64,000 nt of DNA from Bacteroidia bacterium (lineage in GTDB: Bacteria; Bacteroidota; Bacteroidia; SpSt-205), in assembly GCA_039630245.1 (NCBI GenBank), contig JBCNVK010000005.1, forward strand, positions 47,648-111,647, in the 5' to 3' direction. The notes below the pieces were generated by a model, which did not search any database, was not told the DNA's origin, and worked only from the letters and a program-made list of their open reading frames with translations. Position numbers and translations under genes: made by a program. Below, in pieces: positions 2,787 to 55,161 of this stretch (positions are counted from its first letter, which is position 1; every line of letters begins with the position of its first letter).

Positions 2787-3725
2787 TTACTCCACCACCA
2801 CGAGCCGGTCAGCTACACGGCCATACTCGGTCTCTAAGAGGATAGTATAAATCCCCTTAGGTAGACGGAGCGAATAGCGGTGCTCGCCAGCGGCATACAA
2901 GCCCTCGTGGAGGTAAGCTTCACGGCCGTCCATGGTGAAGGCGCGCAGGCTCACGCGGGTAGGCGAGATGAGGATGAACCGAAGCTCCGTCTCACCCCAA
3001 GCCGGATTAGGGGATAAACGCATCTGTACAGAGTGGTTTCCTATATAGCCTGTATAGGTCGGAAGATTGCGGGTGATTTTCACTACGTACCGAAACACGG
3101 TATCTCCATAGGTGCGGTTACCACCCGCATCAGGAGTGTGAAGGGTAGTGGTGTCCTTATTATTCCCATCGCCTGCGAGGGTAGGTATGAAGAATCGTAC
3201 GCGCACGCGCAGGGTGTCAGAGCCTTCTTGATTGGCCGCCTTGATGCAGAGACGGGCGCAACCGAAAGGGGGTGAGCCACCCGCTGTACCCCCAGCACCC
3301 CATTCCGTAGGCGAGGGATTGCGATATACTACAAATCTTGCCGTGTTAGGATTGTTCGGCTCATAGGCCTTGAGGCGGTGCGGTTGGTCAAAGTGGATGG
3401 GGCCAGCCTCAGGGTTATTACTGTTGTAAGCAAAGGGGTTACCGCTGCGGTCCGTCACCCGGTTGGAGTCTAGGCGCATACTATCTACCCAGATGGCATA
3501 ATTAGGAAACACAGTGAAGAGCCCCCTTCTTACAGAGTCTGGAAAGGTGAAATGTACTACGAGCGTAGTGTCGGAACCAGGGCGAAGCCGCAGGGTGTCC
3601 GGATTGAAGCCGAACGGCAACCTAATCAAATTTCGATCAGGCGTGCACTGGGCGCACGTATTTTGGCTGTAAGCCTGAGCCCCTAAAAGGGCCACCGAAA
3701 ATAGAGTAACGCTAGCGTAACGCAT
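2787..3725 (-). CDS. Secreted protein with an N-terminal signal peptide and a T9SS C-terminal sorting domain
   Basis: Signal peptide MRYASVTLFSVALLGAQAYSQ. C-terminal LSPNPAWGETELRF...GIYTILLETEYGRVADRLVVVE is a T9SS CTD. The start is placed at the internal ATG (3725) because TATATTTG lies 7 nt upstream on the minus strand. Confidence 0.6.
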   Translation of the reverse strand: MRYASVTLFSVALLGAQAYSQNTCAQCTPDRNLIRLPFGFNPDTLRLRPGSDTTLVVHFTFPDSVRRGLFTVFPNYAIWVDSMRLDSNRVTDRSGNPFAYNSNNPEAGPIHFDQPHRLKAYEPNNPNTARFVVYRNPSPTEWGAGGTAGGSPPFGCARLCIKAANQEGSDTLRVRVRFFIPTLAGDGNNKDTTTLHTPDAGGNRTYGDTVFRYVVKITRNLPTYTGYIGNHSVQMRLSPNPAWGETELRFILISPTRVSLRAFTMDGREAYLHEGLYAAGEHRYSLRLPKGIYTILLETEYGRVADRLVVVE

Positions 3726-3732
3726 ACCGCTC

Positions 3733-3740
3733 CAAATATA
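3733..3740 (-). promoter_or_regulatory. -7 box TATATTTG on the minus strand, 7 nt upstream of the ATG of gene 2787-3725
   Basis: Matches TAnnTTTG; it sits in a divergent AT-rich intergenic region. Confidence 0.4.
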
Positions 3741-3766
3741 CGGCTTTTTCCAAAAATCCAAATTCC

Positions 3767-3774
3767 TACCTTTG
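3767..3774 (+). promoter_or_regulatory. -7 box TACCTTTG, 4 nt upstream of the GTG start of the OlsF-like gene
   Basis: Matches TAnnTTTG. It is one half of a divergent promoter pair with 3733-3740. Confidence 0.4.
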
Positions 3775-3778
3775 GCTG

Positions 3779-5611
3779 GTGAGCCGCTATCGCCGCCCGC
3801 TCGTGGAGCTAGATAAGCTGCTAGCCACGCCTTGGCAGCGGGTCATCTATCGCCTCTTGGGACCGTGGATAGAAAAGGCTTTAGGCATAGAACGGCTCAA
3901 TCGTTTCTACGAACTCTGCGAAACCTCGGGCAAATCCCCCGCAGAGTTTGCCGATCGGGTACTGGAGCTTATAGGCGTCCAATACGTCTTGCCCTCTGAA
4001 GCTGAATTGGAAGCCCTGCGGGCCTACCAAGGCCCTCTGGTGGTAGTATGCAATCATCCCTTTGGCGGCATAGAAGCCATTTTTCTCGTGCGTTTTCTCA
4101 GTGAAATCCGGCCAGATTTTCGGATCATCGCAAATTTCTTCTTGGAGCGGGTGGAGGAGGTGCGGGAAATGCTTTTGCTGGTAGATCCCTTTGGGGGCGA
4201 AGGGGCCCAGCAGTTCAATCGCCAGCCCTTGCGTCAAGCCTTAGCCTACCTCAAAGGGGGCAATCTTTTAGGAATTTTTCCCTCAGGAGAGGTGGCCAGC
4301 TGGAACTGGCGCACGGGACGAGTGAGGGAGCCCGAATGGCATCCATTGGTAGGGCGCCTCATTTGGCAAAGCCAAGCCGCTGTCCTGCCACTCTATTTTC
4401 ACGGTACGAATAGCCTATTTTTTCATTTAGCCGGGCTTATCCATGCGCGTTTTAGGACGGGACTCCTTATCCGCGAGTTTGTATCGCCTTCTGCGCGCAA
4501 GGTGCATTATCGGATGGGCCGCCTACACCTATTTGAACGCCTGCGCGAGCTGGGATCCCCGGAGCGCATTACCAGCTATTTGCGGGCTAAAACCTACTTA
4601 GTGGGCGAAGCCGTAGAAAACCGCTGGCGTCGCTTGCGGCTTTATCGCTGGCGCCAGCGCTTCCTGCCTACCTATCCCCCTCAACCCATCAAACCTCCCC
4701 TAGGACCTGAGGTTGTGGACCGATTGCTGCGTAGCTTGCCAACTTCCCAAAAGCTTCTAGAACAAGGGGAATGGGCCGTATATTACTTTCGCGGCAGTCA
4801 GCAGCCTGAGCTCCTTTATGAATTGGGACGGCTGCGGGAAACTACCTTCCGCGCCGCAGGAGAGGGTACAGGTAAAGCCTTAGACACGGATGCCTACGAT
4901 ACGTGGTATGACCACCTTGTGCTCTACCACACCAGCGAAAAGGAAATCGTGGGTGCCTATCGGATTGGTCGTTGCGACGAGATTCTTCAGACTCGCGGCC
5001 TGCGCGGCCTTTACCTTTACTCCCTCTTTCACCTGCGGCGCGCGCTTTTCCGTGAGGTTCAGCCAGCGTTAGAGTTGGGCCGCGCTTTTATCACAGAGAA
5101 GTACCAGCGCACCTATGCGCCGCTCTATCTATTGTGGCGGGGGATTGGCCAGTATATCCTCCAAAACCCGCGCTACCGCTTCCTCATAGGGCCTGTGAGC
5201 CTGAGTAGGCATTTTTCGGACCTGTCTAAGGCTTTTCTAGTGGCCTTTCTGGAGGACCATTATAAGGCTGAAGCCCTAATGGCAGAGGTTCGGCCGCGCA
5301 ACCCCTATGTCGTTTCTCCTGACCATCGGAATTACTACTATACAGTAGCGGTTCAGAGCCTCCGAGATGTGGAAGACCTCATAGAGGAATTAGAAGGTAG
5401 TCCCATTCGGCTGCCTGCGCTAATCCGGCACTATTTGCGCATGGGCGCGCGCATTTTGGCCTTCAATATAGACCGCTCCTTTAGCGACGCCTTAGATATA
5501 CTTATGCTTACAGACCTTCTGGAAGTAGAGCCAGAACTTATGCGTAAGTACATGGGTGAGGAGGGGTACGAGCAATACAAGGCGTTTCATAAGCGAGAAG
5601 CTATCGTCTGA
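3779..5611 (+). CDS. Bifunctional aminolipid acyltransferase, OlsF-like. It has an N-terminal PlsC/LPLAT O-acyltransferase domain and a C-terminal OlsB-type hemolysin-like N-acyltransferase domain.
   Basis: The N-terminal half carries VVVCNHPFGGIEA and IFPSGEVAS, which are acyltransferase motif-like. The C-terminal half resembles OlsB/GNAT-type N-acyltransferases. At 610 aa the size matches OlsF. Confidence 0.5.
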   Translation: MSRYRRPLVELDKLLATPWQRVIYRLLGPWIEKALGIERLNRFYELCETSGKSPAEFADRVLELIGVQYVLPSEAELEALRAYQGPLVVVCNHPFGGIEAIFLVRFLSEIRPDFRIIANFFLERVEEVREMLLLVDPFGGEGAQQFNRQPLRQALAYLKGGNLLGIFPSGEVASWNWRTGRVREPEWHPLVGRLIWQSQAAVLPLYFHGTNSLFFHLAGLIHARFRTGLLIREFVSPSARKVHYRMGRLHLFERLRELGSPERITSYLRAKTYLVGEAVENRWRRLRLYRWRQRFLPTYPPQPIKPPLGPEVVDRLLRSLPTSQKLLEQGEWAVYYFRGSQQPELLYELGRLRETTFRAAGEGTGKALDTDAYDTWYDHLVLYHTSEKEIVGAYRIGRCDEILQTRGLRGLYLYSLFHLRRALFREVQPALELGRAFITEKYQRTYAPLYLLWRGIGQYILQNPRYRFLIGPVSLSRHFSDLSKAFLVAFLEDHYKAEALMAEVRPRNPYVVSPDHRNYYYTVAVQSLRDVEDLIEELEGSPIRLPALIRHYLRMGARILAFNIDRSFSDALDILMLTDLLEVEPELMRKYMGEEGYEQYKAFHKREAIV

Positions 5612-5618
5612 GAGCTCC

Positions 5619-5626
5619 TAATTTTG
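5619..5626 (+). promoter_or_regulatory. -7 box TAATTTTG, 4 nt upstream of the ATG of the enoyl-CoA hydratase gene (internal promoter in the cluster)
   Basis: Matches TAnnTTTG, in the 19-nt gap after the olsF-like stop. Confidence 0.4.
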
Positions 5627-5630
5627 CGGT

Positions 5631-6407
5631 ATGTATGAGACCCTTTTGTATGAGGTGCGGGAGGCGGTAGCCTACCTCACCCTCAATCGGCCCGACCGCT
5701 ACAATGCCTTTAACGAGAAAATGAGTGCGGAATTTCTGGAGGCGCTTAGAAAAGTAAGCAAAGACAAGGCCGTGCGCGTGTTGGTAGTAACAGGAGCGGG
5801 CAAGGCCTTCTGCTCGGGTCAAGACCTCAAAGAAGTAGCTGGGGTGGAGCGGTCGCTGGGGGATTCGGTAGCGCGTCGCTACAATCCCATGGTACGAGCC
5901 CTTCATGAGCTAGAAAAACCCGTAATAGCGAGCGTCAATGGGGTGGCTGCGGGTGCTGGCGTAGGCTTAGCCCTTGCCTGCGATTATGTAATAGCCGCCA
6001 AGTCGGCTACTTTCGTACTGGCCTTCGTGAATGTAGGCCTTTCGCTAGATACGGCTACCTCCTTTCACTTAGTGCGTACGGTAGGCCTCAAGCGGGCGTT
6101 TGCTTTGGCCACCTTAGGAGAGCCGCTGGGTGCAGAGCAGGCAGTACAATGGGGCCTTATCAACGAAGTAGTAGAAGAGGCTAAACTGGCTGAAGCTACT
6201 CACGCGCTGGCACTCAAACTGGCGGCGAAAGCACCCCGAGCCTTAGCCCTTATCAAAAAACTTCTTCTGCGCGCCGTTGAGCGCAGCTACGAAGAGGCGC
6301 TTCAGTACGAGCTCTACTATCAAGAAATCGCCGGACGGACGCAGGATTACAAAGAGGGCGTTCAGGCCTTCGTGGAGAAGCGGAAGCCGGTATTCCGAGG
6401 CGAATGA
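5631..6407 (+). CDS. Enoyl-CoA hydratase/isomerase (crotonase superfamily)
   Basis: N-terminal LTLNRPDRYNAFN, and the oxyanion-hole region GAGKAFCSGQDL. 258 aa. Confidence 0.8.
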   Translation: MYETLLYEVREAVAYLTLNRPDRYNAFNEKMSAEFLEALRKVSKDKAVRVLVVTGAGKAFCSGQDLKEVAGVERSLGDSVARRYNPMVRALHELEKPVIASVNGVAAGAGVGLALACDYVIAAKSATFVLAFVNVGLSLDTATSFHLVRTVGLKRAFALATLGEPLGAEQAVQWGLINEVVEEAKLAEATHALALKLAAKAPRALALIKKLLLRAVERSYEEALQYELYYQEIAGRTQDYKEGVQAFVEKRKPVFRGE

Positions 6408-7216
6408 CGGCGCCAGCCGACTGGCGGGAGTGGTTTTCGGGCGCAGCGGGTCGGCGCGCCTGCATCGTCGCCGGCCCATGCGTCGTAGAGTCCTATGCGA
6501 TCTGTGCGCAGGTGGCCGAGCGGCTCCGACAAGCCTGCGAGGCGGAAAACTTCTTCTATATCTTCAAGGCCTCTTACCGTAAGGCTAATCGTACGCGCCT
6601 CTCGGCCTTTCAGGGAATTGGGGATGCGGCAGCTCTGGAAATCCTCGGCCAGGTACGCCACGACTTTGGCCTACCTGTCTTGACCGATGTCCATGAAACG
6701 AGCGAAGTTCCAGCCGCAGCCGCCGTAGCGGATGTGCTCCAAATCCCCGCTTTTTTAGCCCGCCAGACAGCCCTCTTATTAGCCGCAGGCCGTACGGGTA
6801 AAGTGGTGAATATAAAAAAGGGCCAATTTATGAGTGCCCAAGCCCTTCTCTTTGCAGCGGAAAAAGTAAGCTCCACGGGCAATAGACGTATATTTCTCAC
6901 GGAGCGGGGAAATTTTTTTGGCTATGAAGACTTAGTGGTGGATTTTCGGAATATTCCGCGGCTGCGGGCGGGTGGGTATCCGGTGCTTATGGATGCGACG
7001 CATGCCGTCCAGCGCCCTAATTCCGCTGCGGGCTATACCAAGGGGGCCCGCGAATACGTGGCCCTTTACGCGCGGCTGGGCGTAGTAGCGGGTGCCGATG
7101 GGGTCTTTATGGAGGTCCATCCTAACCCAGCAGCTTCACCCAGCGATGCCGAGACCATGCTTTCGCTGGAAGAGGCGGAAGCCCTCTTGAGAGAGCTTAG
7201 TCGGCTTTACCCCTGA
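6404..7216 (+). CDS. kdsA: 3-deoxy-8-phosphooctulonate (KDO-8-P) synthase
   Basis: Strong similarity to KdsA blocks: FKASYRKANRT, VLQIPAFLARQTALL, DATHAVQ. Its start overlaps the upstream stop by 4 nt. Confidence 0.8.
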   Translation: MTAPADWREWFSGAAGRRACIVAGPCVVESYAICAQVAERLRQACEAENFFYIFKASYRKANRTRLSAFQGIGDAAALEILGQVRHDFGLPVLTDVHETSEVPAAAAVADVLQIPAFLARQTALLLAAGRTGKVVNIKKGQFMSAQALLFAAEKVSSTGNRRIFLTERGNFFGYEDLVVDFRNIPRLRAGGYPVLMDATHAVQRPNSAAGYTKGAREYVALYARLGVVAGADGVFMEVHPNPAASPSDAETMLSLEEAEALLRELSRLYP

Positions 7217-8265
7217 TGGAGGGGAAGTTCTGCCTAAGGGCTTTCTGGAGCCTCCCGGAAGCGGAGAACTTAGCCCAGGCGGCGCGGAACTGGAAAGTGC
7301 TGGATAATCGGCCAGTTTATGCGCTGCCTAGAGGCGGCACAACCTGGGAGCTGCTCTCTGCCTTGGCAGACCGCCACGCGGAGGAGATAAAAGCGCTTGC
7401 ACCGCAGGCCGTAGTTATTGGCTCGGCGCGAGGGGAAATGACTATGCTTTTCCAGGCCTACGACGCTTGGCGCTCTACCAAAGCCCTAACGCCTACCCTT
7501 TCTCCTGAAACTTCCTTGGGTACGCTGGCGAGCCGCTTAGCCCGTCGCTTGGGCATTCAAGGGCCAGCATGGACAGTAAGCCAAACCTGCCTTAGCGGCC
7601 TCGTAGCCTTATACCAAGCAGCCCTTCTGATTAGAGCAGGCGCGGCCCAGCGGGTACTTTTTGGGGCGGTAGAAGCTCCTCTCCACCCCTTCTTCGTAGA
7701 AGCTATGGCGGCTTTGCGGATTTATAGCCGTCAGAACGATTTTCCTTTTGTGCGGCCGCTAAGTGGGGAGAATACCTTTGCTTTAGGGGAGGCGGTGGCG
7801 TTAGGTGTTCTGACGGAAGGGACAGACGGCCCTTTTAGAGTAGAAGCCATTCACTTGACTACGGCCGCGCCGAGGGAAGGCCTAGCCTTTCCCGCTGTGG
7901 ATGCGGAAGCTTTAGCGGCTTTCTTGAGGGAGTTTAGTGCCCCGCCCGACATGGTTTTTCTGCATGCCCCTGGGACGCGGCAGGGCGATGCGGCCGAATG
8001 GCAGGCCATTCGCTTAGCTTGGGGTGATGTACCCGCCTGCGCGCCCAAAGCCTTCTTCGGGCACAGCTTGGGGGCCTCCCCGCTGGTGAGCTTAGGCTTA
8101 GCTTGCGCTTTTCTCCGTCAGCGGCGTTGGGTCACAAGCCTTCCTTCTTCTAAAAGCCCTGCGCAGTGGCAGCGAGCCGTAGTCTTGGCTTTAGGCTATG
8201 GCGGGGTAATGGGTGCCATAGAGCTTAGCTATGCGCCTTCAGGAACGGATTCGGCGCACGCTTGA
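7216..8265 (+). CDS. Beta-ketoacyl-ACP synthase I/II-like condensing enzyme. It is internally shortened in the N-terminal half (349 aa against about 410 for FabF) but retains the Cys-His-His triad.
   Basis: TVSQTCLSGL (active-site Cys), LHAPGTRQGD (His) and FFGHSLGASPLVS (His) align to the FabF/FabB catalytic motifs. TGATG couples its start to the kdsA stop. Confidence 0.6.
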   Translation: MEGKFCLRAFWSLPEAENLAQAARNWKVLDNRPVYALPRGGTTWELLSALADRHAEEIKALAPQAVVIGSARGEMTMLFQAYDAWRSTKALTPTLSPETSLGTLASRLARRLGIQGPAWTVSQTCLSGLVALYQAALLIRAGAAQRVLFGAVEAPLHPFFVEAMAALRIYSRQNDFPFVRPLSGENTFALGEAVALGVLTEGTDGPFRVEAIHLTTAAPREGLAFPAVDAEALAAFLREFSAPPDMVFLHAPGTRQGDAAEWQAIRLAWGDVPACAPKAFFGHSLGASPLVSLGLACAFLRQRRWVTSLPSSKSPAQWQRAVVLALGYGGVMGAIELSYAPSGTDSAHA

Positions 8266-9289
8266 TAAGCTACCCCCTAGGGGCTTCTGGCCCTTACCTT
8301 CAGAGGCCCCTGACTTCAGTACAAATGACTACCTCGGCCTCAATCGGGACGGCGTCATTCGGCAGATTTTACAGGCGGTACCCGCGGAGTGGCTGCGTGG
8401 GGGCAGCGCCTCTCGCTACTTAGGTGGCGAAGCTTCGCCCTTTGCCGCCTTAGAAGCTCTCGTCTGCGCCTTGTGGGGACCCCAAGAAGAGGCCCTTTTG
8501 TACCCAAGCGGGCTAGTGGCTAACCTTACCTTCTGGAGCGTGGTACCCGAGCGAGGAGATACAATAGTTTATGATAGGCGCGTCCATGCGTCTATCCGAC
8601 AGGGGATACGACTTAGTGGCGCAAAAAGCTGGGGCTTTCCCCATCAGAATTGGGAGGAGGCTGAAAGGCTTATACGCCGGGCTTCGGGGGAGGTTTTTGT
8701 AGCGGTGGAGTCGCTCTACTCTATGGAAGGTACGAGCCCTTCGGTTGAAGCGCTGAGCTATTTTCAGGCGCATTACGGCTGCCATATCGTGGTAGATGAA
8801 GCCCATACCACGCTTATTCTTCCACAAGGCGCTAGCTGGTCTCAGAGGGTGGGCCTTAGGCCGCTGGCGCGTCTTTTTACTTTTGGTAAGGCGGTTGGCC
8901 TAGTGGGGGCCGTGTGGGTAGGGCCTTGGTGGCTTATAGAGCTTTTGCGGCGGAAAGGATGGGGCGGGATCTATACTACAGCGCTTCCGCCTCTTTTGGC
9001 TTGGGCGGTGGGGGAGGTCCTGCGCCGTTCAGCCGAATGGGAAAGCCGCCGCCAGCGCCTATGGCAGCTGATAGGCTGGACGCGTCAGTACCTCGCTGCG
9101 TGCGGCTATACTTATCAGGGGCTTGAGGGGCCTATTGCGCTGCTTTCGGACGTACATCCACTGCCCCTCAAGAAGCTCCATCCGCCTACCGTACCACAGC
9201 CAGCCTATCGCCTAAGTCTCCATGCCTTCAATACCGAGGCCGAAATCCAAGCCCTTTTCACTTCAGCCAATCCTACCCCTTCTGAGTAG
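8231..9289 (+). CDS. bioF: 8-amino-7-oxononanoate synthase-like alpha-oxoamine synthase (PLP-dependent), short form
   Basis: N-terminal MRLQERIRRTLD is similar to E. coli BioF MSWQEKINAALD. It also has DFSTNDYLGL, DEAHTT and the PLP-lysine motif FTFGKAVG. At 352 aa it is short for a BioF. It overlaps the KAS-like gene by 35 nt. Confidence 0.5.
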   Translation: MRLQERIRRTLDKLPPRGFWPLPSEAPDFSTNDYLGLNRDGVIRQILQAVPAEWLRGGSASRYLGGEASPFAALEALVCALWGPQEEALLYPSGLVANLTFWSVVPERGDTIVYDRRVHASIRQGIRLSGAKSWGFPHQNWEEAERLIRRASGEVFVAVESLYSMEGTSPSVEALSYFQAHYGCHIVVDEAHTTLILPQGASWSQRVGLRPLARLFTFGKAVGLVGAVWVGPWWLIELLRRKGWGGIYTTALPPLLAWAVGEVLRRSAEWESRRQRLWQLIGWTRQYLAACGYTYQGLEGPIALLSDVHPLPLKKLHPPTVPQPAYRLSLHAFNTEAEIQALFTSANPTPSE

Positions 9290-9451
9290 GATTTTGCTGC
9301 TCTCTTAGTAACGGGCTAAAGATGACCTGATAGCGGCACGGTAGAATTCTGCCTAGCTAAAAATCCGCCAGCAGAGCTAGGGATACACCTTGTCTATAAG
9401 CCCTTATCCCTTTCTGGTCAGCAAGGGGCGTAGAAAGGTGCGCATTTGGCT

Positions 9452-9459
9452 TACCTTTG
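9452..9459 (+). promoter_or_regulatory. -7 box TACCTTTG, 4 nt upstream of the GTG (9464) of lepB
   Basis: Matches TAnnTTTG. Confidence 0.35.
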
Positions 9460-9463
9460 TGCG

Positions 9464-10567
9464 GTGGCGGAAAAGGCGCCTTCGGCACGCCGGCGCTGGT
9501 GGCGTGAGCTGATTATAGCTCTGGCGGTCATTCTCTTCCTGCGCACCTTCGTAGTGGAGGCCTTTCTTATTCCCACTAGCTCTATGGAGAAAACCCTTTT
9601 GGCCTGGGATCTCGTCTTTGTGAGCAAGCTTCATTATGGGCCGCGGCTGCCAATGGTGCCCTTAGCTATTCCGTTTATTCACAATCGTATCCCTTTCACG
9701 GGGATTCCCTCGTATTTGGATTGGATTGTTTTTCCCTATGTGCGGTTGCCTGGCTTCAAGCCTATTCAGCGAGGCGACATTATAGTCTTCAACTATCCCG
9801 CCGATGATGTAATGCCCAATAGTCCCGAGCTGGGTCCCGTACAAATCCCGAGCCTCAAGGAAAACTACGTCAAGCGGTGTGTAGGCATTCCCGGCGATAC
9901 GATAGAAATACAAGCTGGGGAACTGTATGTAAATGGCCGACTGGCCTATGCGCCGCGCTATCTACAGGAGCGTTATCGGGCGGTTACGCAGGGCGAACCC
10001 CTTACCTATCGGGTGCTGCGGCCGTTTGGGTTCCGCCCGCCAGGAAGTTCCAACCTGAATTGGAGTATGCGGGATGCCCGTACCTACCTGCTGGATATGA
10101 CGCGCGAGACAGCGCGCGCATTTCAGCAAAACTTTGCCTCCATCTTAGATACCTTTCACAGAGAAATAGACTCGGCCGGGCGCTTTATGCCGCTTATTTA
10201 CCCTCAGGATACGAACTTTCGGTGGAATTTAGACTACTGGGGGCCCTTCTATCTACCCCGGCGAGGGGATAAAATTCGGCTCAACTATTATACCTTAGCT
10301 CTTTACCGACGGCTCATAGAGGGGTATGAAGGGCATAATGTGCAGGTAGTAGGCGGGCAGATATACATAGACGGGGAGCCCCGAACGGAATATACCTTTC
10401 AGCAGAATTACTACTTTGCGATGGGCGATAATCGCTATAACTCGCTAGATGGGCGCTTTTGGGGGCCCGTGCCAGAGGATCACATTATAGGGAAGCCGAT
10501 TTTCGTCCTACTCTCTATTGAGGATTGGAAGCCGCGATGGGACCGGTTTCTGCGAGCCGTACAATAG
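9464..10567 (+). CDS. lepB: Signal peptidase I
   Basis: IPTSSMEKTLL (catalytic Ser box) and GDNRYNSLDGRFWGPV (box E), with an N-terminal TM anchor. The start is chosen at the in-frame GTG behind the -7 box; the ORF could begin at 9446. Confidence 0.75.
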   Translation: MAEKAPSARRRWWRELIIALAVILFLRTFVVEAFLIPTSSMEKTLLAWDLVFVSKLHYGPRLPMVPLAIPFIHNRIPFTGIPSYLDWIVFPYVRLPGFKPIQRGDIIVFNYPADDVMPNSPELGPVQIPSLKENYVKRCVGIPGDTIEIQAGELYVNGRLAYAPRYLQERYRAVTQGEPLTYRVLRPFGFRPPGSSNLNWSMRDARTYLLDMTRETARAFQQNFASILDTFHREIDSAGRFMPLIYPQDTNFRWNLDYWGPFYLPRRGDKIRLNYYTLALYRRLIEGYEGHNVQVVGGQIYIDGEPRTEYTFQQNYYFAMGDNRYNSLDGRFWGPVPEDHIIGKPIFVLLSIEDWKPRWDRFLRAVQ

Positions 10568-16125: not shown

Positions 16126-16133
16126 TACTTTTG
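16126..16133 (+). promoter_or_regulatory. -7 box TACTTTTG, 4 nt upstream of the kbl ATG
   Basis: Matches TAnnTTTG. Confidence 0.4.
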
Positions 16134-16137
16134 CTCT

Positions 16138-17337
16138 ATGGCTTTTGGGCTTATCCAGTGGGCTGAGGCGCAGCTGTCTGAGATTCGGCGTAGCGGCCTG
16201 TACAAAACAGAACGGGTTATTGATTCACCACAAGGGGTGGAGATCACTCTAGCGGATGGCCGGCGGGTCCTTAATTTTTGTGCTAATAACTATTTGGGTT
16301 TAGCTTCGCACCCGCGTGTGGTAGCGGCGGCCCATCGCGCACTGGAGCGGTGGGGCTACGGCATGGCTTCGGTTCGCTTCATTTGTGGCACGCAGACGCC
16401 CCATAAAGCTCTAGAGCGCGCCATCGCCGACTTCCTGCACTGTGAAGACGCCATTCTGTATGCAGCTTGCTTTGACGCCAATGGAGGTGTCTTTGAGCCC
16501 TTTTTCGGACCGGAGGATGCCATTTTTTCGGACGAGCTCAATCACGCCAGCCTGATAGATGGTATCCGCCTTACGAAAGCGCGGCGGCTGATTTATCGCC
16601 ACTGTGATGTAGAGGATTTAGAGCGCAAGATCGTAGAAGCAGGGCCTGTACGCTTTCGGGCTATTGTTACGGACGGGGTTTTCTCCATGGATGGAGATTA
16701 TGCCCCTTTGCCCGAACTTATGCGACTGGCCGAGCAGTATGATGCGCTACTTATCGTGGATGACTCGCATGCGACGGGCTTCGTAGGGCCGACGGGCCGA
16801 GGGACGCCCGAACGGTTCGGGATTTTAGGTGCTCCGCGTCTCCTAATTACGGGTACGCTGGGCAAAGCGCTAGGGGGAGCCATGGGCGGCTTCGTGGCCG
16901 GGGCAGCGCCGCTTATAGACCTATTGCGGCAGCGCTCACGCCCCTACCTTTTCTCCAATTCCCTCTCACCTGTAGTCGCCGCTACAGCGGCCGAGATTTT
17001 CTCATGGCTTGCCGATACTACGGAACTGCGCGACCGACTTGAGCAAAACACCCGACAGTTCCGGGAAGGCCTTAGCCGAGCGGGCTTTCAGATAAAACCC
17101 GGCGATCATCCGATTGTGCCGATTATGCTCTATGATGCGGTTCTGACTCAGGAAATGGCTGAAGCCTTGTTGGAGGAAGGCATTTATGTGGTGGGCTTTT
17201 CTTACCCAGTGGTGCCGCGTGGTCAGGCGCGCATTCGGGTACAGCTTAGCGCCGCCCATACGTCTGAGCACATTGCCCAAGCGCTTGCGGCCTTTGAGAA
17301 GGTAGGCGCGCGCTTAGGAGTTCTGGCCAAGTCCTAA
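16138..17337 (+). CDS. kbl: Glycine C-acetyltransferase (2-amino-3-ketobutyrate CoA ligase)
   Basis: FCANNYLGL, FICGTQ, DDSHATGF and the GTLGKALGG PLP-Lys motif. 399 aa. Confidence 0.75.
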   Translation: MAFGLIQWAEAQLSEIRRSGLYKTERVIDSPQGVEITLADGRRVLNFCANNYLGLASHPRVVAAAHRALERWGYGMASVRFICGTQTPHKALERAIADFLHCEDAILYAACFDANGGVFEPFFGPEDAIFSDELNHASLIDGIRLTKARRLIYRHCDVEDLERKIVEAGPVRFRAIVTDGVFSMDGDYAPLPELMRLAEQYDALLIVDDSHATGFVGPTGRGTPERFGILGAPRLLITGTLGKALGGAMGGFVAGAAPLIDLLRQRSRPYLFSNSLSPVVAATAAEIFSWLADTTELRDRLEQNTRQFREGLSRAGFQIKPGDHPIVPIMLYDAVLTQEMAEALLEEGIYVVGFSYPVVPRGQARIRVQLSAAHTSEHIAQALAAFEKVGARLGVLAKS

Positions 17338-18294
17338 ACTAATCTGTTGTGCCCCGCCGCGCAGACTGAATATATCGGTACGGCCGGTCTGGCGGCGCAG
17401 CGCATAGGCAATTTGCCGACTACGCTCACCCTGCTCGCATACTATAATCACTGGCTGGCCTGAAAGCCGCCACTGGACCCAATTATACCAAGGGAGGTGT
17501 TGGGCCGGTACAGGCAGGGGGGGAAGGGGATTTTCGCGCAGGTCTATCCATTGGGCCGTAGGGAAGGCTTGTGTCGCTTCCCAGGAAAGCTCCAGCGGAG
17601 CGACTGGCTCAGCTGCCTCTAAGGCGAAGCTCTGCATGAGACCGCGCAGAAGGTCTAAGCGAAAGAGGATATTGACGGGCGCTAAGGCGGGCTGGGCTAA
17701 ATACTGAGCCGCTAAGGCCGCTTGAAGGGCCCCTACTACCCCTGGAAGGGCCCCTAAAACGCCGCCTATACTACAGCTAGGACCGCCCTCTTCGGCGCCG
17801 AAAAAATCCCTGTACCGCACCCCGACGAGCAGAGCCGCTTGCCCCTCCCCCTGATATACGGAGCCATATACCCAAGGCTTTTGGCAGGTGGCCGCCGCTT
17901 CATCCAGCGCCAGGCGGCTTGCAAGGTTGTCGGTGCCATCAATCCAAATGCCAGCGGCTTTGCCATATGTCTCTAAAAAGGCTCTATCGGCCCATACAGC
18001 GTGGGTTTCTACCTTCAAGTCGGGGCGCAAGCGGCGAAGGTGAGCGGCCAAAACTTCTACCTTAGGCTTACCTAAATCGGCTTCTGTATAGAGGGGCTGG
18101 CGGTGCAGATTTGCCTCGGCTACCGCGTCTGGGTCGGCTAAAATGAGCTTACCGATCCCCATGGCGGCTAAGTAGAGCGCCGCCGGTTGCCCTATGCCAC
18201 CTACGCCTACCACCAGCGCTGTGCTAGCCCCTAATTTTTCCTGGCTCCAGCCTGGGAGGCGCTGCTGCGGCTCGTAGCGCGAACTAGTTGCCAT
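17314..18294 (-). CDS. ThiF/MoeB-family E1-like adenylyltransferase with a C-terminal rhodanese domain (MoeZ type)
   Basis: Rossmann motif VVGVGGIGQPAALYLAAMGIGKL. The C-terminal CEQGERS region resembles a rhodanese active site. Confidence 0.7.
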   Translation of the reverse strand: MATSSRYEPQQRLPGWSQEKLGASTALVVGVGGIGQPAALYLAAMGIGKLILADPDAVAEANLHRQPLYTEADLGKPKVEVLAAHLRRLRPDLKVETHAVWADRAFLETYGKAAGIWIDGTDNLASRLALDEAAATCQKPWVYGSVYQGEGQAALLVGVRYRDFFGAEEGGPSCSIGGVLGALPGVVGALQAALAAQYLAQPALAPVNILFRLDLLRGLMQSFALEAAEPVAPLELSWEATQAFPTAQWIDLRENPLPPLPVPAQHLPWYNWVQWRLSGQPVIIVCEQGERSRQIAYALRRQTGRTDIFSLRGGAQQISLGLGQNS

Positions 18295-19954
18295 ACCGCG
18301 GGCGTATTTCGCCCTTTTCGTATTCCCAGAGGCGGAAGCGATAGCGTTCGCACTGAGGGGGGAGGAGATAAGTATTCAGAAGACCAAGCATCTCTTTGCG
18401 GGGCAGGGGAGCGTTAGGGGTATAAGCGTTACTAAGCGTGGCTATCCAGAGGGCGGCGTCATACCCCTGCGCATGGTAAAGTGTACCAGGCTGAGCAAAA
18501 AGCTGGCGTACACGCTGATTTAGGCTCCGCCAGGCCGCACTATCAGGCAGAAATACCTGCGGTATCCAGATCCGAAGGCGACGGTAATCTCTAAAGTAAG
18601 TGTATTGGAAATCGTTCCAAGTAGCCATACCTATTACGAGCGGGGGGAGAGAGTCCCTTCCCAGCTTGTGGAGCAAGAAGCCCAATAAGTCTTCACGGTT
18701 GCAGGCAAGGGTGTACCAGCTAAGCCCTTGAAGGGAGTCTTTGAGGGTGGCCCAGCGCTGGGTTAGCTCTTTGAGGTCGGAGGGCAGTGCGTAGAGAGGA
18801 CAGGGCCGAACCTGCCTAAACCCCTCGGCAAAAGCTACTGCCTGAGGGTCGGAGGCGTCGTAAAGGCATACCCCTGACCCATTTCCTTCAAGTTCCTTTC
18901 GGAGTTGCGCGCCTACGAATTGGCCCTGGCACTCTGCAGGAGGAAGCAGCGGAAAGGTATAGGGGTACTTAGGGTAAGCGGTGTTGATGGGCACGGCCTG
19001 CCAGATGCCTTTGCGCGCACAGAAGCTGCTAAGGGTTTGGTTGAGGCTCCAAGAAACCTCTCCTATGAGGATGTGGGGTGGGTGGGTTTCCCACTGCAAG
19101 AGGATTTCTTGAAGGCGGAGCGGATTGCGCTCGCTATCCTCTACGCGCACTTCCCAGACATAGTAAGGTGAGCGCGCCTCCCGAAGGCCCAGCTCAAATC
19201 CCTGCCAGAATTCCAAAAAGGGAGATGGTTTCTCCTGATTGGCTAAGAAAGGCATTAGAAGGGCTATGCGCAGGGTTTCGGGAGAGAGGGTATCTACCAG
19301 AGCAGCCCAGCTCCAAGGTAGGTGGGTCTCCTCGCCGCAGCGATAGCGGATTTCTTTTTCCCTTAGGCGCCAGAGCTCCCAGTAGCACCCCTGCCGAAGC
19401 TGATACAAAAGGGCTGGCAAAAAATAGGCTTGCAGGAGCGGGTGCCCCTCGTCAATGTAGGTCCATAAGAAACCCAAGTCCGCCTCATAATAGGCGAAAT
19501 GAGTCAGGCGATAGGCCGCTTCAGTGCGTAGAGCTGGGGGAGTGTGAGGACTCTCTAAAAGGTCACGCAGGAGAAAGAGCGCCTCTTTGCGGGTAGAGCG
19601 CTTTCTAAGCAGTAAGTCGGCGCGCCAGTAGGTGGCTTCGCAGCCTAGAGCAGAATGCGGCGTATATTGCGAGAGGCGGTACCAGTAGCCAAGGGCTTCA
19701 TTTTCGCGCCCGACGCGTGCAGCTACGTACCCTCGCAGAAGGAGGCTCTCCCAGCGTATGAGGCTATCGGGGCTTTCCTGGAGCTTTTGGAGCTGCCGCT
19801 GGGCGTTTAAGGTAAGGCCGCGCTGAATGGCCTGATATACAGGGGCCAAGGGGCTGGAGGGAGCCTGCGCCCAAGCCCCACAGCCTATCCCTATGCAGAG
19901 GAGCGCTAAGCTACTCCCACTCAATTGTAGCGGGCGGCTTAGTGGAGATATCAT
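18284..19954 (-). CDS. Lipoprotein with N-terminal TPR-like helices and a type-1 periplasmic-binding-fold C-terminal domain. It is possibly an LpoA-like PBP activator.
   Basis: Signal plus lipobox-like CIGIGCG. The domain architecture is inferred from the sequence pattern only. Confidence 0.3.
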   Translation of the reverse strand: MISPLSRPLQLSGSSLALLCIGIGCGAWAQAPSSPLAPVYQAIQRGLTLNAQRQLQKLQESPDSLIRWESLLLRGYVAARVGRENEALGYWYRLSQYTPHSALGCEATYWRADLLLRKRSTRKEALFLLRDLLESPHTPPALRTEAAYRLTHFAYYEADLGFLWTYIDEGHPLLQAYFLPALLYQLRQGCYWELWRLREKEIRYRCGEETHLPWSWAALVDTLSPETLRIALLMPFLANQEKPSPFLEFWQGFELGLREARSPYYVWEVRVEDSERNPLRLQEILLQWETHPPHILIGEVSWSLNQTLSSFCARKGIWQAVPINTAYPKYPYTFPLLPPAECQGQFVGAQLRKELEGNGSGVCLYDASDPQAVAFAEGFRQVRPCPLYALPSDLKELTQRWATLKDSLQGLSWYTLACNREDLLGFLLHKLGRDSLPPLVIGMATWNDFQYTYFRDYRRLRIWIPQVFLPDSAAWRSLNQRVRQLFAQPGTLYHAQGYDAALWIATLSNAYTPNAPLPRKEMLGLLNTYLLPPQCERYRFRLWEYEKGEIRPRYGN

Positions 19955-41330: not shown

Positions 41331-42158
41331 ATGGCGCGCCTTCTACCGCATAAGCGTTTGGGTGTAAAGGGCCCATGGTTAGTGCTCATTCATGGGTATA
41401 TGGTGAATGGGGGTATGTTTATGCCTGTGGAGGGTGCCTTAGCGCAGCACTATCGGCTCATTATTCCCGACTTACGGGGCTATGGAGGAGCCTGGAACTG
41501 GGAGGGACCCTATACGCTGAGTCAGCGGGCGGAAGATGTGATGGCGCTGATTTCGGCGCTAACTGAGGGTGAGCCCGTATGGGTTTTAGGCTATTCTATG
41601 GGCGGGGTGATAGCGCAGCTTTTGGCCGTGCGCTATCCCGAGCGGCTGGAGGGGCTTATTTTAGCCTGCACTTTCGCCTATAAGCCGAGTACGACTTTGG
41701 AGCAGTGGCAGGGGCGTCTATTGGGGCGGGTATTGCGCCTTCTCCCGCCCGCCTCTATAGCCAATCTGATCTATCCTCAGGCTTTTGGGAGCGAAACCTT
41801 TCCTGTAGAGGTGGTTGAGTGGTATCGGAAAGCGCTCCAATCCACACGCTTAGAGGTGCTCTTAGCGGATGCGGAGGAGATATTCCGCTACGATGGGCGG
41901 CCTTTCCTGCCTTCTATTCGGCATCCTACCTTAGTGATAGGAGGCACGGCAGATTTTATTGTGCCGGCCTATCACAGCCAGCAGATTAGCCGACTTATAC
42001 CGCAGGCGCAGCTTATTCTCTACAAGGGAGCTACGCATGCGCTTATTTTTACGCATCGGCGGCCTTTCGTAAGGGACGTACATCGGTTTATTCTATCGGC
42101 GGTTCATACGCCTGCAGTACCCAATCCGCACTCCGCCCCGTCTCAATCTCCTCAATAA
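41331..42158 (+). CDS. Alpha/beta-fold hydrolase
   Basis: VLGYSMGGVIA nucleophile elbow. 275 aa. Confidence 0.7.
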   Translation: MARLLPHKRLGVKGPWLVLIHGYMVNGGMFMPVEGALAQHYRLIIPDLRGYGGAWNWEGPYTLSQRAEDVMALISALTEGEPVWVLGYSMGGVIAQLLAVRYPERLEGLILACTFAYKPSTTLEQWQGRLLGRVLRLLPPASIANLIYPQAFGSETFPVEVVEWYRKALQSTRLEVLLADAEEIFRYDGRPFLPSIRHPTLVIGGTADFIVPAYHSQQISRLIPQAQLILYKGATHALIFTHRRPFVRDVHRFILSAVHTPAVPNPHSAPSQSPQ

Positions 42159-53206: not shown

Positions 53207-54385
53207 TTAGTTTAGGCGCTCAAAGATACCAGCTATGCCTTGGCCACCTCCCACGCAAGCCGTTACTAAGCCATATTTCTGATTGCGTCGCCGCAGTTCA
53301 TTTAGGATTTGTACGGTGAGCTTAGCGCCCGTACAGCCGAGCGGATGGCCTAACGCAATAGCCCCCCCATTGACATTTACCTTATCCAGTGGCAGCTCGG
53401 CTAGCTTGATTACGGCTAAGGATTGGGCGGCGAAGGCTTCATTTAGCTCGATAAGGTCTATATCGGCTAAGGAGAGTCCGGCGCGCCGTAGGGCCTTTGG
53501 TATGGCCTCTACAGGACCTATCCCCATAAGGCGCGGCTCTACGCCAGCCACGGCATAGCCGCGCAATACAGCTAAGGGCTTGAGGTTATGCCGTTTAAGG
53601 AAAGCCTCACTCACAACTAAAACAAACGCTGCGCCATCCGAAGTTTGAGAAGCATTGCCAGCCGTTACCTGACCATTAGCGGCAAAAACTGGCTTGAGCT
53701 TCGCTAAGGCTTCCAAGCTGGTATCTGCGCGCGGCCCTTCATCCGTATCGTGAATAAAGCGGCGCACCTGCCTTTTGCCATTCTCTACAATTACTTCTTC
53801 TACTTCAAGCGGCACGATCTCCTCCCGAAACTTGCCAGCGGCTATAGCGGCGAGCGCATTCTGGTGAGAGCGTAAAGCGAAGGCATCCGCCTCCGCCCGC
53901 GTAATCTGGTACGTACGGGCTACTTCCTCAGCAGTCATGCCCATATTGTAGTACCAGTCGGGCGCATGCAGGGCATAGTTGTAGTTGGGTGCGATCTTAA
54001 AGCCTCCCATAGGCACTAGGGACATCGTCTCAGTACCTCCTGCTATAATCGCCTCGGCATCACCCGTGCGGATTTTAGAAACAGCCATGGCTATGGCTTC
54101 CAGACCTGAAGCGCAGTAGCGATTGATAGTAACAGCGGGCACCTCTTTACCTAAGGCCTTCAGGGCGATGTAGCGGCCCATATTGAGCCCTTGCTCGGCT
54201 TCGGGAATAGCATTGCCGCAGATGAGGTCATCTATCTCTTGGGTGAAGTTTATTTGGGGGAAGTCGGCGCGCAGCTTCTCAATCACCGCTACGGCCATAT
54301 CGTCGGGTCGTACGGTTCGTAACCTACCGCGCGGCGCCTTTCCCACAGCGGTGCGGTAACCGGCTACTAAGTAGGCTTCCTGCAT
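53207..54385 (-). CDS. Acetyl-CoA C-acetyltransferase (thiolase II)
   Basis: [11 protein letters not shown] (Cys), and C-terminal [16 protein letters not shown]. Confidence 0.85.
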
Positions 54386-54399
54386 GAAGCAAAAATAGT

Positions 54400-55083
54400 T
54401 TATCTGGGGGGTTGACGCAGGGCTTGTGGAGGAAGGTGGGCAGGGTCGGCTAAATAAAATCGCTCTGTCTCAGGGAGAATCTCCAGCCGCAGGACACCAA
54501 TAAGGGTGTATTTGATAAGGATGCGTTCAGCCTTCCAGCCTTCTTTAGGGCCTAGGAGCTGGCGGAAGGTAGTGGCCTCAATAAACGGATGCGTCTGGAG
54601 GTACCTAAAGAGCTGGGCTTCGGCCTGGCGAAAAAATATATGCTGGGGCTGGCGGGCTGCTAGCCAGAGCCGCTCTAAGAGCCGGCCAGCCAGACGCGTT
54701 TTGTCCCCTGCACGCACATACGCCCGCCGAATTCCCCCTTCCTCCAGCACATATACAGGCCGCTTGTCAGGGTGCGCCGCCACTTGAATTTCCAACACGT
54801 ATTTCTCCTCGCAGTTATACACTAAGCTTTCAAAGGGAATAGGCGGGGAGAGGTAGCGGTGGGCCGCTAATTCTACCATGTAAAACTCCTGTTCGGGGTC
54901 TATACCAGCGATGCGTCCATTGTCTTTCACACCAATGAGGAGGCTTCCGCCTGCTGTATTAGCGAAAGCCGAGAGGGTTCGGGCAATCTTGCGGGCACTT
55001 TCTATACGCTGCTTGAAATCTAGGTGCAACCCTTCCCCTTCTGCAATGCGGCTCAGAAGGGAAAGCAGCGCGCGCCCCTCCAT
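54400..55083 (-). CDS. AlbA_2 / divergent-AAA (Schlafen-like) DNA-binding domain protein with a C-terminal wHTH
   Basis: LHLDFKQ...AFANTAGGSLLIGVKDNGRIAGI is the AlbA_2 signature. Confidence 0.6.
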   Translation of the reverse strand: MEGRALLSLLSRIAEGEGLHLDFKQRIESARKIARTLSAFANTAGGSLLIGVKDNGRIAGIDPEQEFYMVELAAHRYLSPPIPFESLVYNCEEKYVLEIQVAAHPDKRPVYVLEEGGIRRAYVRAGDKTRLAGRLLERLWLAARQPQHIFFRQAEAQLFRYLQTHPFIEATTFRQLLGPKEGWKAERILIKYTLIGVLRLEILPETERFYLADPAHLPPQALRQPPR

Positions 55084-55161
55084 TGTGGCCTTGCAAAATA
55101 ATAAATTTGGGTCTAAAGTTCCCTTAGGTATGGCGCTAAGGTTTTAGCGTATTTTGAGGGC

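Follow-up and report, generated by a model that had tools for sequence, protein, structure and literature searches.

A crotonase-KdsA-KAS-BioF operon of hot-spring Bacteroidia with a probable role in the supply of a biotin precursor

The window analysed here is a 64-kb stretch of DNA from a Bacteroidia bacterium which carries five co-directional open reading frames at 3779-9289. The reading we favour, and consider rather probable, is that the last four of these make up a lineage-specific crotonase-KdsA-KAS-BioF operon in which KAS and BioF supply the biotin precursor KAPA, and that the OlsF-like gene in front of them is separate. The distribution of this four-gene operon is confined to one hot-spring clade of Bacteroidia, and its genes belong to separate housekeeping pathways, a mixture that is common in this compact genome.

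Organisation of the locus

An earlier note on this DNA had described the frames, their domains and their junctions, all of which are borne out (Table 1), the junctions by direct reading of the sequence. The OlsF-like frame ends in TGA and is followed by a 19-nt spacer containing TAATTTTG and by the ATG of the crotonase gene, which in turn overlaps KdsA by 4 nt (ATGA); KdsA and KAS overlap by 1 nt (TGATG) and KAS and the alpha-oxoamine synthase (AOS) by 35 nt. The start of AOS at 8231 is supported by comparison with solved BioFs, whose N-termini match the protein from residues 5-8 on. The tight packing is real, but 34 of the 39 pairs of same-strand neighbouring frames in the window, taken with longest-ORF starts, overlap or lie at most 25 nt apart, so that tight spacing is the norm of this genome and is uninformative on a shared pathway.

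Table 1. Reading frames of the locus and the promoter boxes that flank them
Feature	Position	Strand	Length	Remark
Bacteroidota-type -7 box TACCTTTG	3767..3774	+		4 nt upstream of the OlsF-like start codon
OlsF-like acyltransferase ORF	3779-5611	+	610 aa	
-7 box TAATTTTG	5619..5626	+		4 nt before the crotonase ATG; predicted start of the four-gene unit
PaaG-like crotonase ORF	5631-6407	+	258 aa	
KdsA ORF	6404-7216	+	270 aa	
Short KAS ORF	7216-8265	+	349 aa	
BioF-like AOS ORF	8231-9289	+	352 aa	
-7 box of the signal peptidase I unit	9452..9459	+		marks the downstream end of the four-gene operon; spacer of about 160 nt

The Bacteroidota -7 box motif, TAnnTTTG, is enriched in the window (50 observed vs 28 +/- 5 expected). 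The internal box to which the earlier note had pointed is present, and in 17 of 19 loci of the clade a TAnnTTTG stands at -12 to -5 relative to the crotonase ATG regardless of the upstream gene, which would imply that transcription starts there. No such box lies before KdsA, KAS or AOS. The conserved box is predicted to open a transcription unit of its own and to set the OlsF-like gene apart, which under its own -7 box would form a stand-alone aminolipid acyltransferase gene. The mRNA of the four-gene operon would be near-leaderless, with the -7 box so close to the first ATG, and its translation would be coupled through the overlapping stop and start codons. The alternative offered in the earlier note, that two housekeeping units (an aminolipid acyltransferase; kdsA plus biotin) are fused around an internal promoter at 5619, fits this evidence.

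The OlsF-like gene

The product of the first frame carries an Acyltransf_2 domain at residues 30-278 and an Acetyltransf_5 domain at residues 352-453 (Pfam). Its best NCBIfam model is OlsF (NF052615), which aligns over residues 23-592 with 347 bits and does not reach the cut-off of 620. The adjacency of KAS and the BioF-like gene to kdsA is conserved in the clade, but OlsF adjoins the crotonase-KdsA-KAS-AOS cluster only in the window and in one relative (L021), and is missing upstream of it from no fewer than 12 further loci of the clade with enough flank. The OlsF-like aminolipid acyltransferase gene is therefore best viewed as a separate gene outside the conserved unit, and one predicted to have no functional tie to the genes downstream.

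Crotonase and KdsA

The crotonase aligns with E. coli PaaG at 227 bits and retains the PaaG-type Asp. The two hydratase glutamates, whose motif positions (GGGxE...PE) are general knowledge of the crotonase family, are both absent, with the protein reading AGAGVGLALACD and AFVNVGLSLD instead. Identity as an enoyl-CoA hydratase sensu stricto, as named in the earlier note, is not supported, given the lack of both catalytic glutamates and the resemblance to PaaG; judged by its residues, the protein is a putative PaaG-like crotonase fold of the isomerase type. Many Bacteroidota have orthologues that are 55-60% identical, and the gene stands alone in all three of the other Bacteroidota checked. Its role would be a housekeeping one, probably unrelated to the other operon genes. 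KdsA (3-deoxy-8-phosphooctulonate synthase), which would make Kdo-8-phosphate for LPS (Kdo synthesis), reaches the cut-off of NF003543 (322 bits vs 242), falls just under that of TIGR01362 (308 bits vs 314) and is 73-79% identical across the clade. In most clade loci crotonase and KdsA are about 73-83% identical as against 36-54% for KAS, and from this conservation both look like slow-evolving housekeeping genes.

The BioF-like alpha-oxoamine synthase

The best NCBIfam model for AOS is BioF (TIGR00858) at 192 bits, short of the curated cut-off of 426, which is likewise not reached by the Hymenobacter BioF that lies inside a bio operon (334 bits). Every non-BioF model scores at most 108 bits, with SPT at 108 and Kbl at 107; for the SPT models the scores are 80-108 bits where 500-670 would be required, among them the SPT CFB model with 102 against 640. 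A genuine Kbl, encoded elsewhere in the window, reaches 596 bits and so clears its cut-off of 493. Among PDB matches the top six are all BioF (92-96 bits), followed at a distance by SPT (80), Kbl (71) and the cysteate acyltransferase CapB (28eh, 56), which ranks below BioF, ALAS, SPT and Kbl. An identity as SPT, CapB or Kbl is rejected, since these scores are well under those of BioF and the SPT cut-offs are unreached.

The motifs VVDEAHT (DEAH), FTFGKAVG (TFGK) and PPTVPQPAYRLSLHA (C-terminal YRLSLHA) are all present, and K220, H192 and R327 do not vary among 20 members of the clade; going by the roles described for E. coli BioF, we take these to be the PLP lysine in TFGK, the His of DEAH and the C-terminal carboxylate-binding Arg. 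In a neighbour-joining tree, which carries no support values, AOS falls on the BioF side and far from Kbl. Its closest outgroup (L036, 43% identity) sits inside a bioB-F-D-A-KAS operon, and its next-closest relatives are BioFs with BioD-BioA downstream. Scores, tree and outgroup thus place AOS, which the earlier note had left between BioF, Kbl, SPT and CapB, with BioF and away from SPT and CapB. AOS is probably a divergent short BioF-type enzyme, a predicted 8-amino-7-oxononanoate synthase.

The short KAS and a proposed route to KAPA

KAS is short compared with full-length FabF/FabB (349 vs about 410 aa), and neither its best model, NF004618 (69.5 bits vs a cut-off of 455), nor FabF (53 vs 494) is reached. 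The Cys-His-His triad and Lys are in place, with C125, H250, H283 and K278 invariant in 17 sequences. KAS shares 37% identity (E 5e-30) with the last gene product of the Hymenobacter bioF-bioD-bioA-KAS cluster. In a neighbour-joining tree, again without support values, it is sister to a biotin-operon KAS family and separate from the FabF-like, aryl-polyene and actinobacterial KS sequences included for comparison. Members of this family have bioF/A/D/B within 10 kb at 41 of 46 loci (Bacteroidota, Bdellovibrionota), BioB being the only other recurrent neighbour, and are annotated merely as 'beta-ketoacyl synthase N-terminal-like domain-containing protein'.

It is proposed that KAS-AOS is a diverged copy of the BioF-KAS module that recurs in biotin operons across many Bacteroidota and Bdellovibrionota. 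KAS would condense a short carboxy-acyl primer (a malonyl or glutaryl thioester) with malonyl-ACP toward pimeloyl-ACP, with the reductions en route presumably carried out by general fatty-acid enzymes, and BioF would then join the pimeloyl thioester and L-alanine, giving 8-amino-7-oxononanoate (KAPA), the first intermediate that is committed to biotin. A point against a role in biotin synthesis is that both proteins fall short of their biotin-operon relatives in length and have diverged further (349 vs about 390 aa for KAS; 192 vs 334 bits for AOS, the latter being the Hymenobacter BioF).

Gene context and alternative explanations

The crotonase (ECH)-KdsA-KAS-AOS operon is conserved in about 25 hot-spring Bacteroidia contigs and is contiguous in every clade contig long enough to show the order. 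The earlier note was right that bioA, bioB, bioC and bioD are missing from the window: none was found among its 50 scanned ORFs (Pfam) or by tblastn, and bioA, bioD and bioB were not found within 10 kb at about 27 clade loci, which extends the absence to every relative examined and is the chief reservation about the biotin reading. Since BioD-BioA follow most ordinary BioFs, this could mean that KAS-AOS of the hot-spring clade, perhaps together with the crotonase and even with KdsA, has become detached from biotin and makes another alpha-amino-ketone, such as a head group for a lipid or for signalling, assembled from an amino acid and an acyl thioester that KAS provides. The shortening of both proteins, their scores far under the curated cut-offs and the strictly conserved gene order would agree with this. 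So would a sister lineage (L004/L005), which keeps ECH-KdsA-KAS without AOS beside yceD-rpmF-plsX-fabH; KAS is thus linked to ECH-KdsA no less stably than to BioF, a further point against the biotin reading. However, it is common in Lewinella/Neolewinella and Bdellovibrionota, too, for a BioF-KAS pair to have no bioA/D/B within 10 kb, so that separation from the late genes is not unusual for the module; moreover, AOS keeps all its catalytic motifs with BioF still the top score, and crotonase and KdsA are of a slow-evolving, housekeeping type with other contexts elsewhere. We regard such a detachment as unlikely. Its fullest form, in which the four-gene unit is a dedicated pathway of thermophilic Bacteroidia whose KAS and AOS have left biotin and which, with the PaaG-like crotonase and perhaps KdsA chemistry, yields a new amino-ketone metabolite or envelope component, seems decidedly unlikely. 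The crotonase could instead work together with KAS and BioF, so that three enzymes lead to a pimeloyl thioester and KAPA without BioC or BioH; it would act for instance on an unsaturated or carboxylated C5-C7 thioester, with KdsA as a passenger. Joint transcription of crotonase and KAS is retained throughout the clade and in L004/L005, and the Desulfovibrio bio cluster also pairs a KAS with dehydratase-type enzymes (PMC10102598), but not one of the about 46 biotin-operon KAS loci contains a crotonase, and the stand-alone orthologues and the isomerase-like active site described above speak against it too, so that this route is judged quite improbable.

The earlier note had preferred a single sphingoid-, capnine- or ornithine-like aminolipid pathway in which KAS makes an acyl donor, the crotonase modifies it, AOS joins it to an amino acid and the OlsF-like enzyme performs N- and O-acylation. 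The co-directional, closely spaced genes and the recurrence of OlsF in L021 could be read in its favour. It is opposed by the lack of OlsF upstream of the cluster in most relatives, the conserved promoter box between OlsF and crotonase, spacing that is ordinary for this genome, a biotin-type KAS and an AOS that is BioF-like and neither SPT- nor CapB-like. OlsF-type enzymes, furthermore, acylate free amino acids and do not need an AOS product. Already undermined by synteny, the five-gene pathway appears largely refuted, and we consider it highly improbable.

Comparison with known systems

The closest known systems to the 3779-5611 protein are OlsF and GlsB/GlsA of Bacteroidota. It has the OlsF architecture, an N-terminal O-acyltransferase and a C-terminal GNAT N-acyltransferase in one polypeptide, but scores only about half of the curated cut-off for the bifunctional ornithine lipid synthase. 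Like the BioFs of bio operons (E. coli BioF, PDB 1BS0; Hymenobacter sp. DG25B, CP010054), AOS is a PLP-dependent alpha-oxoamine synthase by its sequence, with DEAH, TFGK and the C-terminal Arg, and it is 36-43% identical to the BioFs of bioF-bioD-bioA operons. Unlike them it is about 30 aa shorter, and in the clade it is never found beside bioD/bioA but sits after KdsA and KAS. SPT and cysteate-C-fatty acyltransferase (CapB, 28eh) share its fold and chemistry but are clearly weaker matches than BioF.

KAS resembles the biotin-operon KAS family in its Cys-His-His-Lys set, its BioF neighbour and its sister position in the tree, as well as in the invariant Arg of an S-R-G motif that aligns with the gate residue I108 of E. 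coli FabF. It differs from the family in length, by about 40 aa fewer, in its remodelled N-terminal third, in an identity of only 30-37%, and in gene order, which is KAS then BioF in the window and BioF(-BioD-BioA) then KAS in the family. No characterisation of this family was found in the literature searched, and it is here that the remaining interest of the locus lies. It is possible, if on balance doubtful, that the family, of which the window KAS would be the most reduced member, represents an undescribed BioC/BioH-independent route to a pimeloyl thioester; we rank this as more likely than a dedicated four-gene pathway with an as yet unknown amino-ketone product.

Condensing enzymes dedicated to pimelate synthesis have been described elsewhere and offer precedent for the route proposed above. 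BioZ of alpha-proteobacteria is a KAS III that uses glutaryl-CoA and has a Cys-His-Asn triad (PMC7645780, PMC8024396) in place of the Cys-His-His of the window KAS. The FabF-like DVU2563 from the bio cluster of Desulfovibrio vulgaris is needed for growth without biotin (PMC10102598) and comes with an ACP of its own and with partners resembling FabG and FabZ; the window KAS has none of these beside it. Despite these differences, the three may be likened by role and gene context, each being a condensing enzyme encoded with a bio-type gene for which assembly of the pimeloyl chain has been proposed or shown, independently of the methyl-ester disguise of BioC/BioH.

Gene organisation and promoter elements

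The five open reading frames of the region between 3779 and 9289, which encode an OlsF-like acyltransferase, a crotonase, KdsA, a short ketoacyl synthase (KAS) and a BioF-like alpha-oxoamine synthase (AOS), were called at the positions assigned to them in the earlier note, and its domain assignments were upheld by Pfam and NCBIfam. The junctions read from the sequence are likewise as described there: the TGA of gene 1 lies 19 nt ahead of the ATG of gene 2, genes 2 and 3 meet in ATGA and genes 3 and 4 in TGATG, and gene 5 overlaps gene 4 by 35 nt. An AOS start at position 8231 is credible, since the N-terminus that it gives, LQERIRRTLDKL..., aligns with those of BioFs of solved structure. Tight spacing is the norm across the window, where 34 of 39 same-strand neighbour pairs overlap or lie at most 25 nt apart (longest-ORF starts), among them the obviously unrelated pair of signal peptidase and PurL, and closeness in this region is therefore no evidence of a pathway. 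T9SS sorting domains are also encoded in the window.

For TAnnTTTG, the -7 motif of Bacteroidota, the window has 50 occurrences versus 28 +/- 5 expected. The internal box at 5619 that had been pointed out previously is present and conserved in relatives: among the crotonase upstream regions examined in loci L001-L089, 17 of 19 have it exactly at -12 to -5 relative to the crotonase start codon, irrespective of the upstream gene, and one further locus has it with a single mismatch. This conservation indicates that crotonase opens a conserved four-gene unit and that the OlsF-like gene is separate. The TAnnTTTG scan of the window found no box ahead of KdsA, KAS or AOS, and a scan for terminators and sigma-70 promoters between 3500 and 9700 gave nothing above chance. 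The thiolase start codon also follows the end of a -7 box by 4 nt. Both in the window and upstream of crotonase in relatives the motif recurs with its end just 4-12 nt ahead of a start codon, and such start-proximal boxes would imply leaderless or near-leaderless mRNAs in this lineage.

Features of the window and of compared loci (locus number before the colon where not in the window)
Feature	Position	Strand	Remark
-7 box	3767-3774	+	ends 4 nt before OlsF-like start codon
-7 box	5619-5626	+	ends 4 nt before crotonase start codon
-7 box	9452		after ~160-nt spacer downstream of AOS; precedes signal peptidase I
-7 box	16126-16133		ends 4 nt before Kbl start codon
-7 box	54390-54397	minus	one of the boxes near start codons
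KAS	7216-8265	+	349 aa
AOS	8231-9289	+
Signal peptidase I	9446-10567
Kbl	16138-17337
ORF	2787-3761	minus	324 aa; no significant Pfam domain; weak T9SS sorting signal at end
ORF	18284-19954	minus	556 aa; no significant Pfam domain
Flavin-containing monooxygenase (FMO-like, 464 aa)	26500-28699		gene overlaps short-chain dehydrogenase gene
Alpha/beta hydrolase	41331-42158
Thiolase (acetyl-CoA C-acyltransferase), Schlafen/AlbA_2-domain protein, ACP phosphodiesterase (AcpH)	53207-55743		adjoin one another
Region of crotonase-KdsA-KAS and yceD-rpmF-plsX-fabH	L004:6446-11700
Cupin_8/JmjC-like gene	L024:12122-12985
Cupin_8/JmjC-like gene	L032:12221-13081
Cupin_8/JmjC-like gene	L048:12255-13106
~194 aa gene	L040:10989-11570		also in L023, L033, L039 and one further locus

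Gene neighbourhoods in relatives

Homologous loci came from look-ups of KAS and AOS homologues, from genomes, one for each species, scanned with a KAS alignment (70 loci) and from a metagenome scan with the AOS-clade alignment (80 loci), and all were annotated by blastp and tblastn. The order crotonase-KdsA-KAS-AOS is kept in every contig with enough sequence (~25 contigs) of a hot-spring clade of Bacteroidia, with identities to the window of 36-85% for KAS and 52-90% for AOS. Among the loci compared, only the window and L021 (66% identical) have the OlsF-like gene upstream, other clade loci having SprA, Lon, LysM proteins and others ahead of crotonase; of the neighbourhood suggested for comparison earlier, the association of KAS and AOS with kdsA is conserved in the clade and that with olsF is not. 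In L004 and L005, from a more distant Bacteroidia lineage (KAS 34%), crotonase-KdsA-KAS is followed by yceD-rpmF-plsX-fabH without an AOS, an order which links KAS there to fatty-acid genes. Signal peptidase I directly adjoins the BioF-KAS pair in the window, after AOS, and directly precedes the BioF of the pair in Lewinella/Neolewinella (L027, L037, L041, L045, L053), which may be either remnant synteny or coincidence.

The alpha-oxoamine synthase

AOS scores 192 bits with the BioF model TIGR00858 (SPT 108, Kbl 107), and its top six matches among solved structures are all BioF (92-96 bits), followed by ALAS (82), SPT (80), Kbl (71), cysteate-C-fatty acyltransferase (56) and CqsA (51 bits). 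SPT and CapB are ruled out on these model and PDB scores. Its catalytic motifs are invariant in the clade. The close family is small (~35 clusters at at least 50% identity), and after it, at no more than 40% identity, come annotated BioFs of Hymenobacter and Myroides, of which that of Hymenobacter sp. DG25B heads bioF-bioD-bioA and then a KAS gene. Outside the clade, the relatives in the metagenome scan are ordinary BioFs, most with BioD-BioA after them. The phylogenetic placement called for by the earlier note was run as a neighbour-joining tree rooted on the window Kbl, and the AOS clade falls on the BioF side, a placement qualified by the shortness of the protein, a score below the curated cut-off and a tree without support values. 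The clade adjoins the BioF of L036, which is 43% identical and belongs to an operon of the order bioB-bioF-bioD-bioA-KAS.

AOS is not a Kbl either; the genuine Kbl (glycine C-acetyltransferase, 596 bits versus a cut-off of 493) is the second alpha-oxoamine synthase of the window, 7 kb downstream. As had been claimed, bioA, bioB, bioC and bioD are absent from the 50 Pfam-scanned ORFs of the window (of 53 longest-ORF calls, three of <130 aa being left out), and tblastn agrees. An alpha/beta hydrolase distant from the KAS-BioF pair scores weakly as BioH-like (TIGR01738, 90 bits versus a cut-off of 207) and matches 3-oxoadipate enol-lactonase models best.

The ketoacyl synthase and its relatives in biotin operons

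The best NCBIfam model for KAS scores 69.5 bits. Cys125, His250, His283 and Lys278 are invariant in the alignment, which predicts a competent Cys-His-His condensing enzyme despite its small size. KAS is 37% identical (E 5e-30) to a KAS of a Hymenobacter bio cluster and ~27% to FabF-like proteins. In a neighbour-joining tree the KAS of the hot-spring clade and of L004/L005 form the sister group of a family of KAS encoded in biotin operons, both standing apart from the fetched FabF-like, aryl-polyene and actinobacterial KS. The sole aryl-polyene match (P0035, L008) is more distant and lies within a typical APE cluster, and this identity was rejected.

An invariant Arg (Arg72, S-R-G motif) aligns with Ile108 of E. 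coli FabF. FabF I108 is a "back gate" residue of the acyl pocket (PMC9006962). A positive charge at this site would suit a carboxylated primer. This reading is only a lead, because S-R also occurs at this position in some other FabF-like matches (P0036-P0041), which weakens the case for Arg72 as a mark peculiar to the biotin-operon KAS.

BioF and KAS are associated across phyla, and 41 of 46 loci of the biotin-operon KAS family have at least one of bioF, bioA, bioD and bioB within 10 kb, commonly as bioF-bioD-bioA-KAS-bioB or just bioF-KAS. In the species-genome scan members of this family adjoin bio genes in Saprospiraceae, Lewinella/Neolewinella, Flavilitoribacter, Robiginitalea, Aquimarina, Mesonia, Chryseobacterium, Rufibacter and Negadavirga, as well as in MAGs of Bdellovibrionota and a few of proteobacteria. 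In the sampled biotin operons of Bacteroidota (Hymenobacteraceae, Saprospiraceae, Flavobacteriaceae and others) and Bdellovibrionota, no extra gene other than a Cys-His-His KAS recurs. When 98 unlabelled neighbours were assigned to Pfam families, BioB was the sole recurrent one, and no recurrent methyltransferase, BioH-like esterase, P450 or BioW stood among the 25 commonest families. In the incomplete body of literature covered we found no published characterisation of such a KAS in Bacteroidota bio operons.

In Flavobacteriaceae operons of the order bioF-bioD-bioA-KAS-bioB the next gene encodes a conserved Cupin_8/JmjC-like protein of 283-287 aa, a putative Fe/2-oxoglutarate oxygenase which could be another unrecognised component of the biotin pathway. 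Saprospiraceae have a conserved membrane/lipoprotein-like gene without Pfam match between KAS and bioB.

Crotonase and KdsA

The crotonase evolves slowly (72-94% identity among its closest database homologues) and shares 55-60% identity with hundreds of proteins from Bacteroidota. Its gene stands alone in Pontibacter and in the two other Bacteroidota examined, with kdsA, KAS and bioF elsewhere, so a widespread crotonase-KdsA pair was discarded. Among solved structures its sequence is closest to 2ej5 and the PaaG proteins of E. coli and Thermus. Both hydratase glutamates are missing and the PaaG-type aspartate is kept, indicating that it is not a classical enoyl-CoA hydratase. KdsA passes its curated threshold (322 bits versus 242) and LptD and LptE are encoded in the window; most simply, it would be a housekeeping Kdo8P synthase.

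Readings of the locus

The headline proposal, that all five genes form an aminolipid pathway, is very improbable. The OlsF-like two-domain acyltransferase (347 bits versus a cut-off of 620) is not syntenic, a conserved promoter box separates it from the other genes and AOS falls on the BioF side; a pathway including OlsF is rejected on synteny and internal promoter, and the locus gives no reason to be followed as a new lipid pathway. The alternative which the earlier note itself had offered, an OlsF-like gene beside a kdsA-plus-biotin-type unit, is supported instead, and the region is best read as a separate OlsF-like gene followed by a clade-specific mixed operon ending in a reduced BioF-KAS module.

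Repurposing of the KAS-AOS pair away from biotin is unlikely. It draws on the absence of bioA, bioD and bioB within 10 kb in any clade locus, and keeps some probability since the searches covered neighbourhoods rather than whole genomes; however, genomes of the Lewinella type and of Bdellovibrionota, too, commonly have a BioF-KAS pair with no late bio genes close by, so this absence weighs less. That crotonase, which shares the operon in the clade, takes part in a KAS-BioF route is distinctly doubtful, as such a link is unsupported outside the hot-spring clade.

Possible role and comparison with known pimelate routes

The residual interest of the locus lies in the uncharacterised biotin-operon KAS family. 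The analysis shows the operon structure, the identity of the genes as far as their families and the link between BioF and KAS in several phyla. On this basis, a KAS of this kind may join a short carboxy-acyl primer to malonyl-ACP and so supply, or help to supply, a pimeloyl thioester, from which the BioF-type AOS would then make KAPA. The origin of the pimeloyl moiety in bacteria without BioC/BioH, BioI/BioW, BioZ or BioE is an open question in biotin biochemistry, for which this family is a concrete and testable candidate, and the hot-spring clade has the smallest form of the module, two genes in one operon with predicted thermostable products. The pimelate routes given in a 2025 survey are only BioC-BioH, BioI-BioW, BioZ and, newly added, BioE-BioL (PMC12704756). 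BioZ is a precedent for a KAS role in pimeloyl synthesis (PMC7645780, PMC8024396), and the FabF-like DVU2563 belongs to the bio cluster of a Desulfovibrio which has no bioC or bioH and requires the whole cluster for biotin-free growth (PMC10102598).
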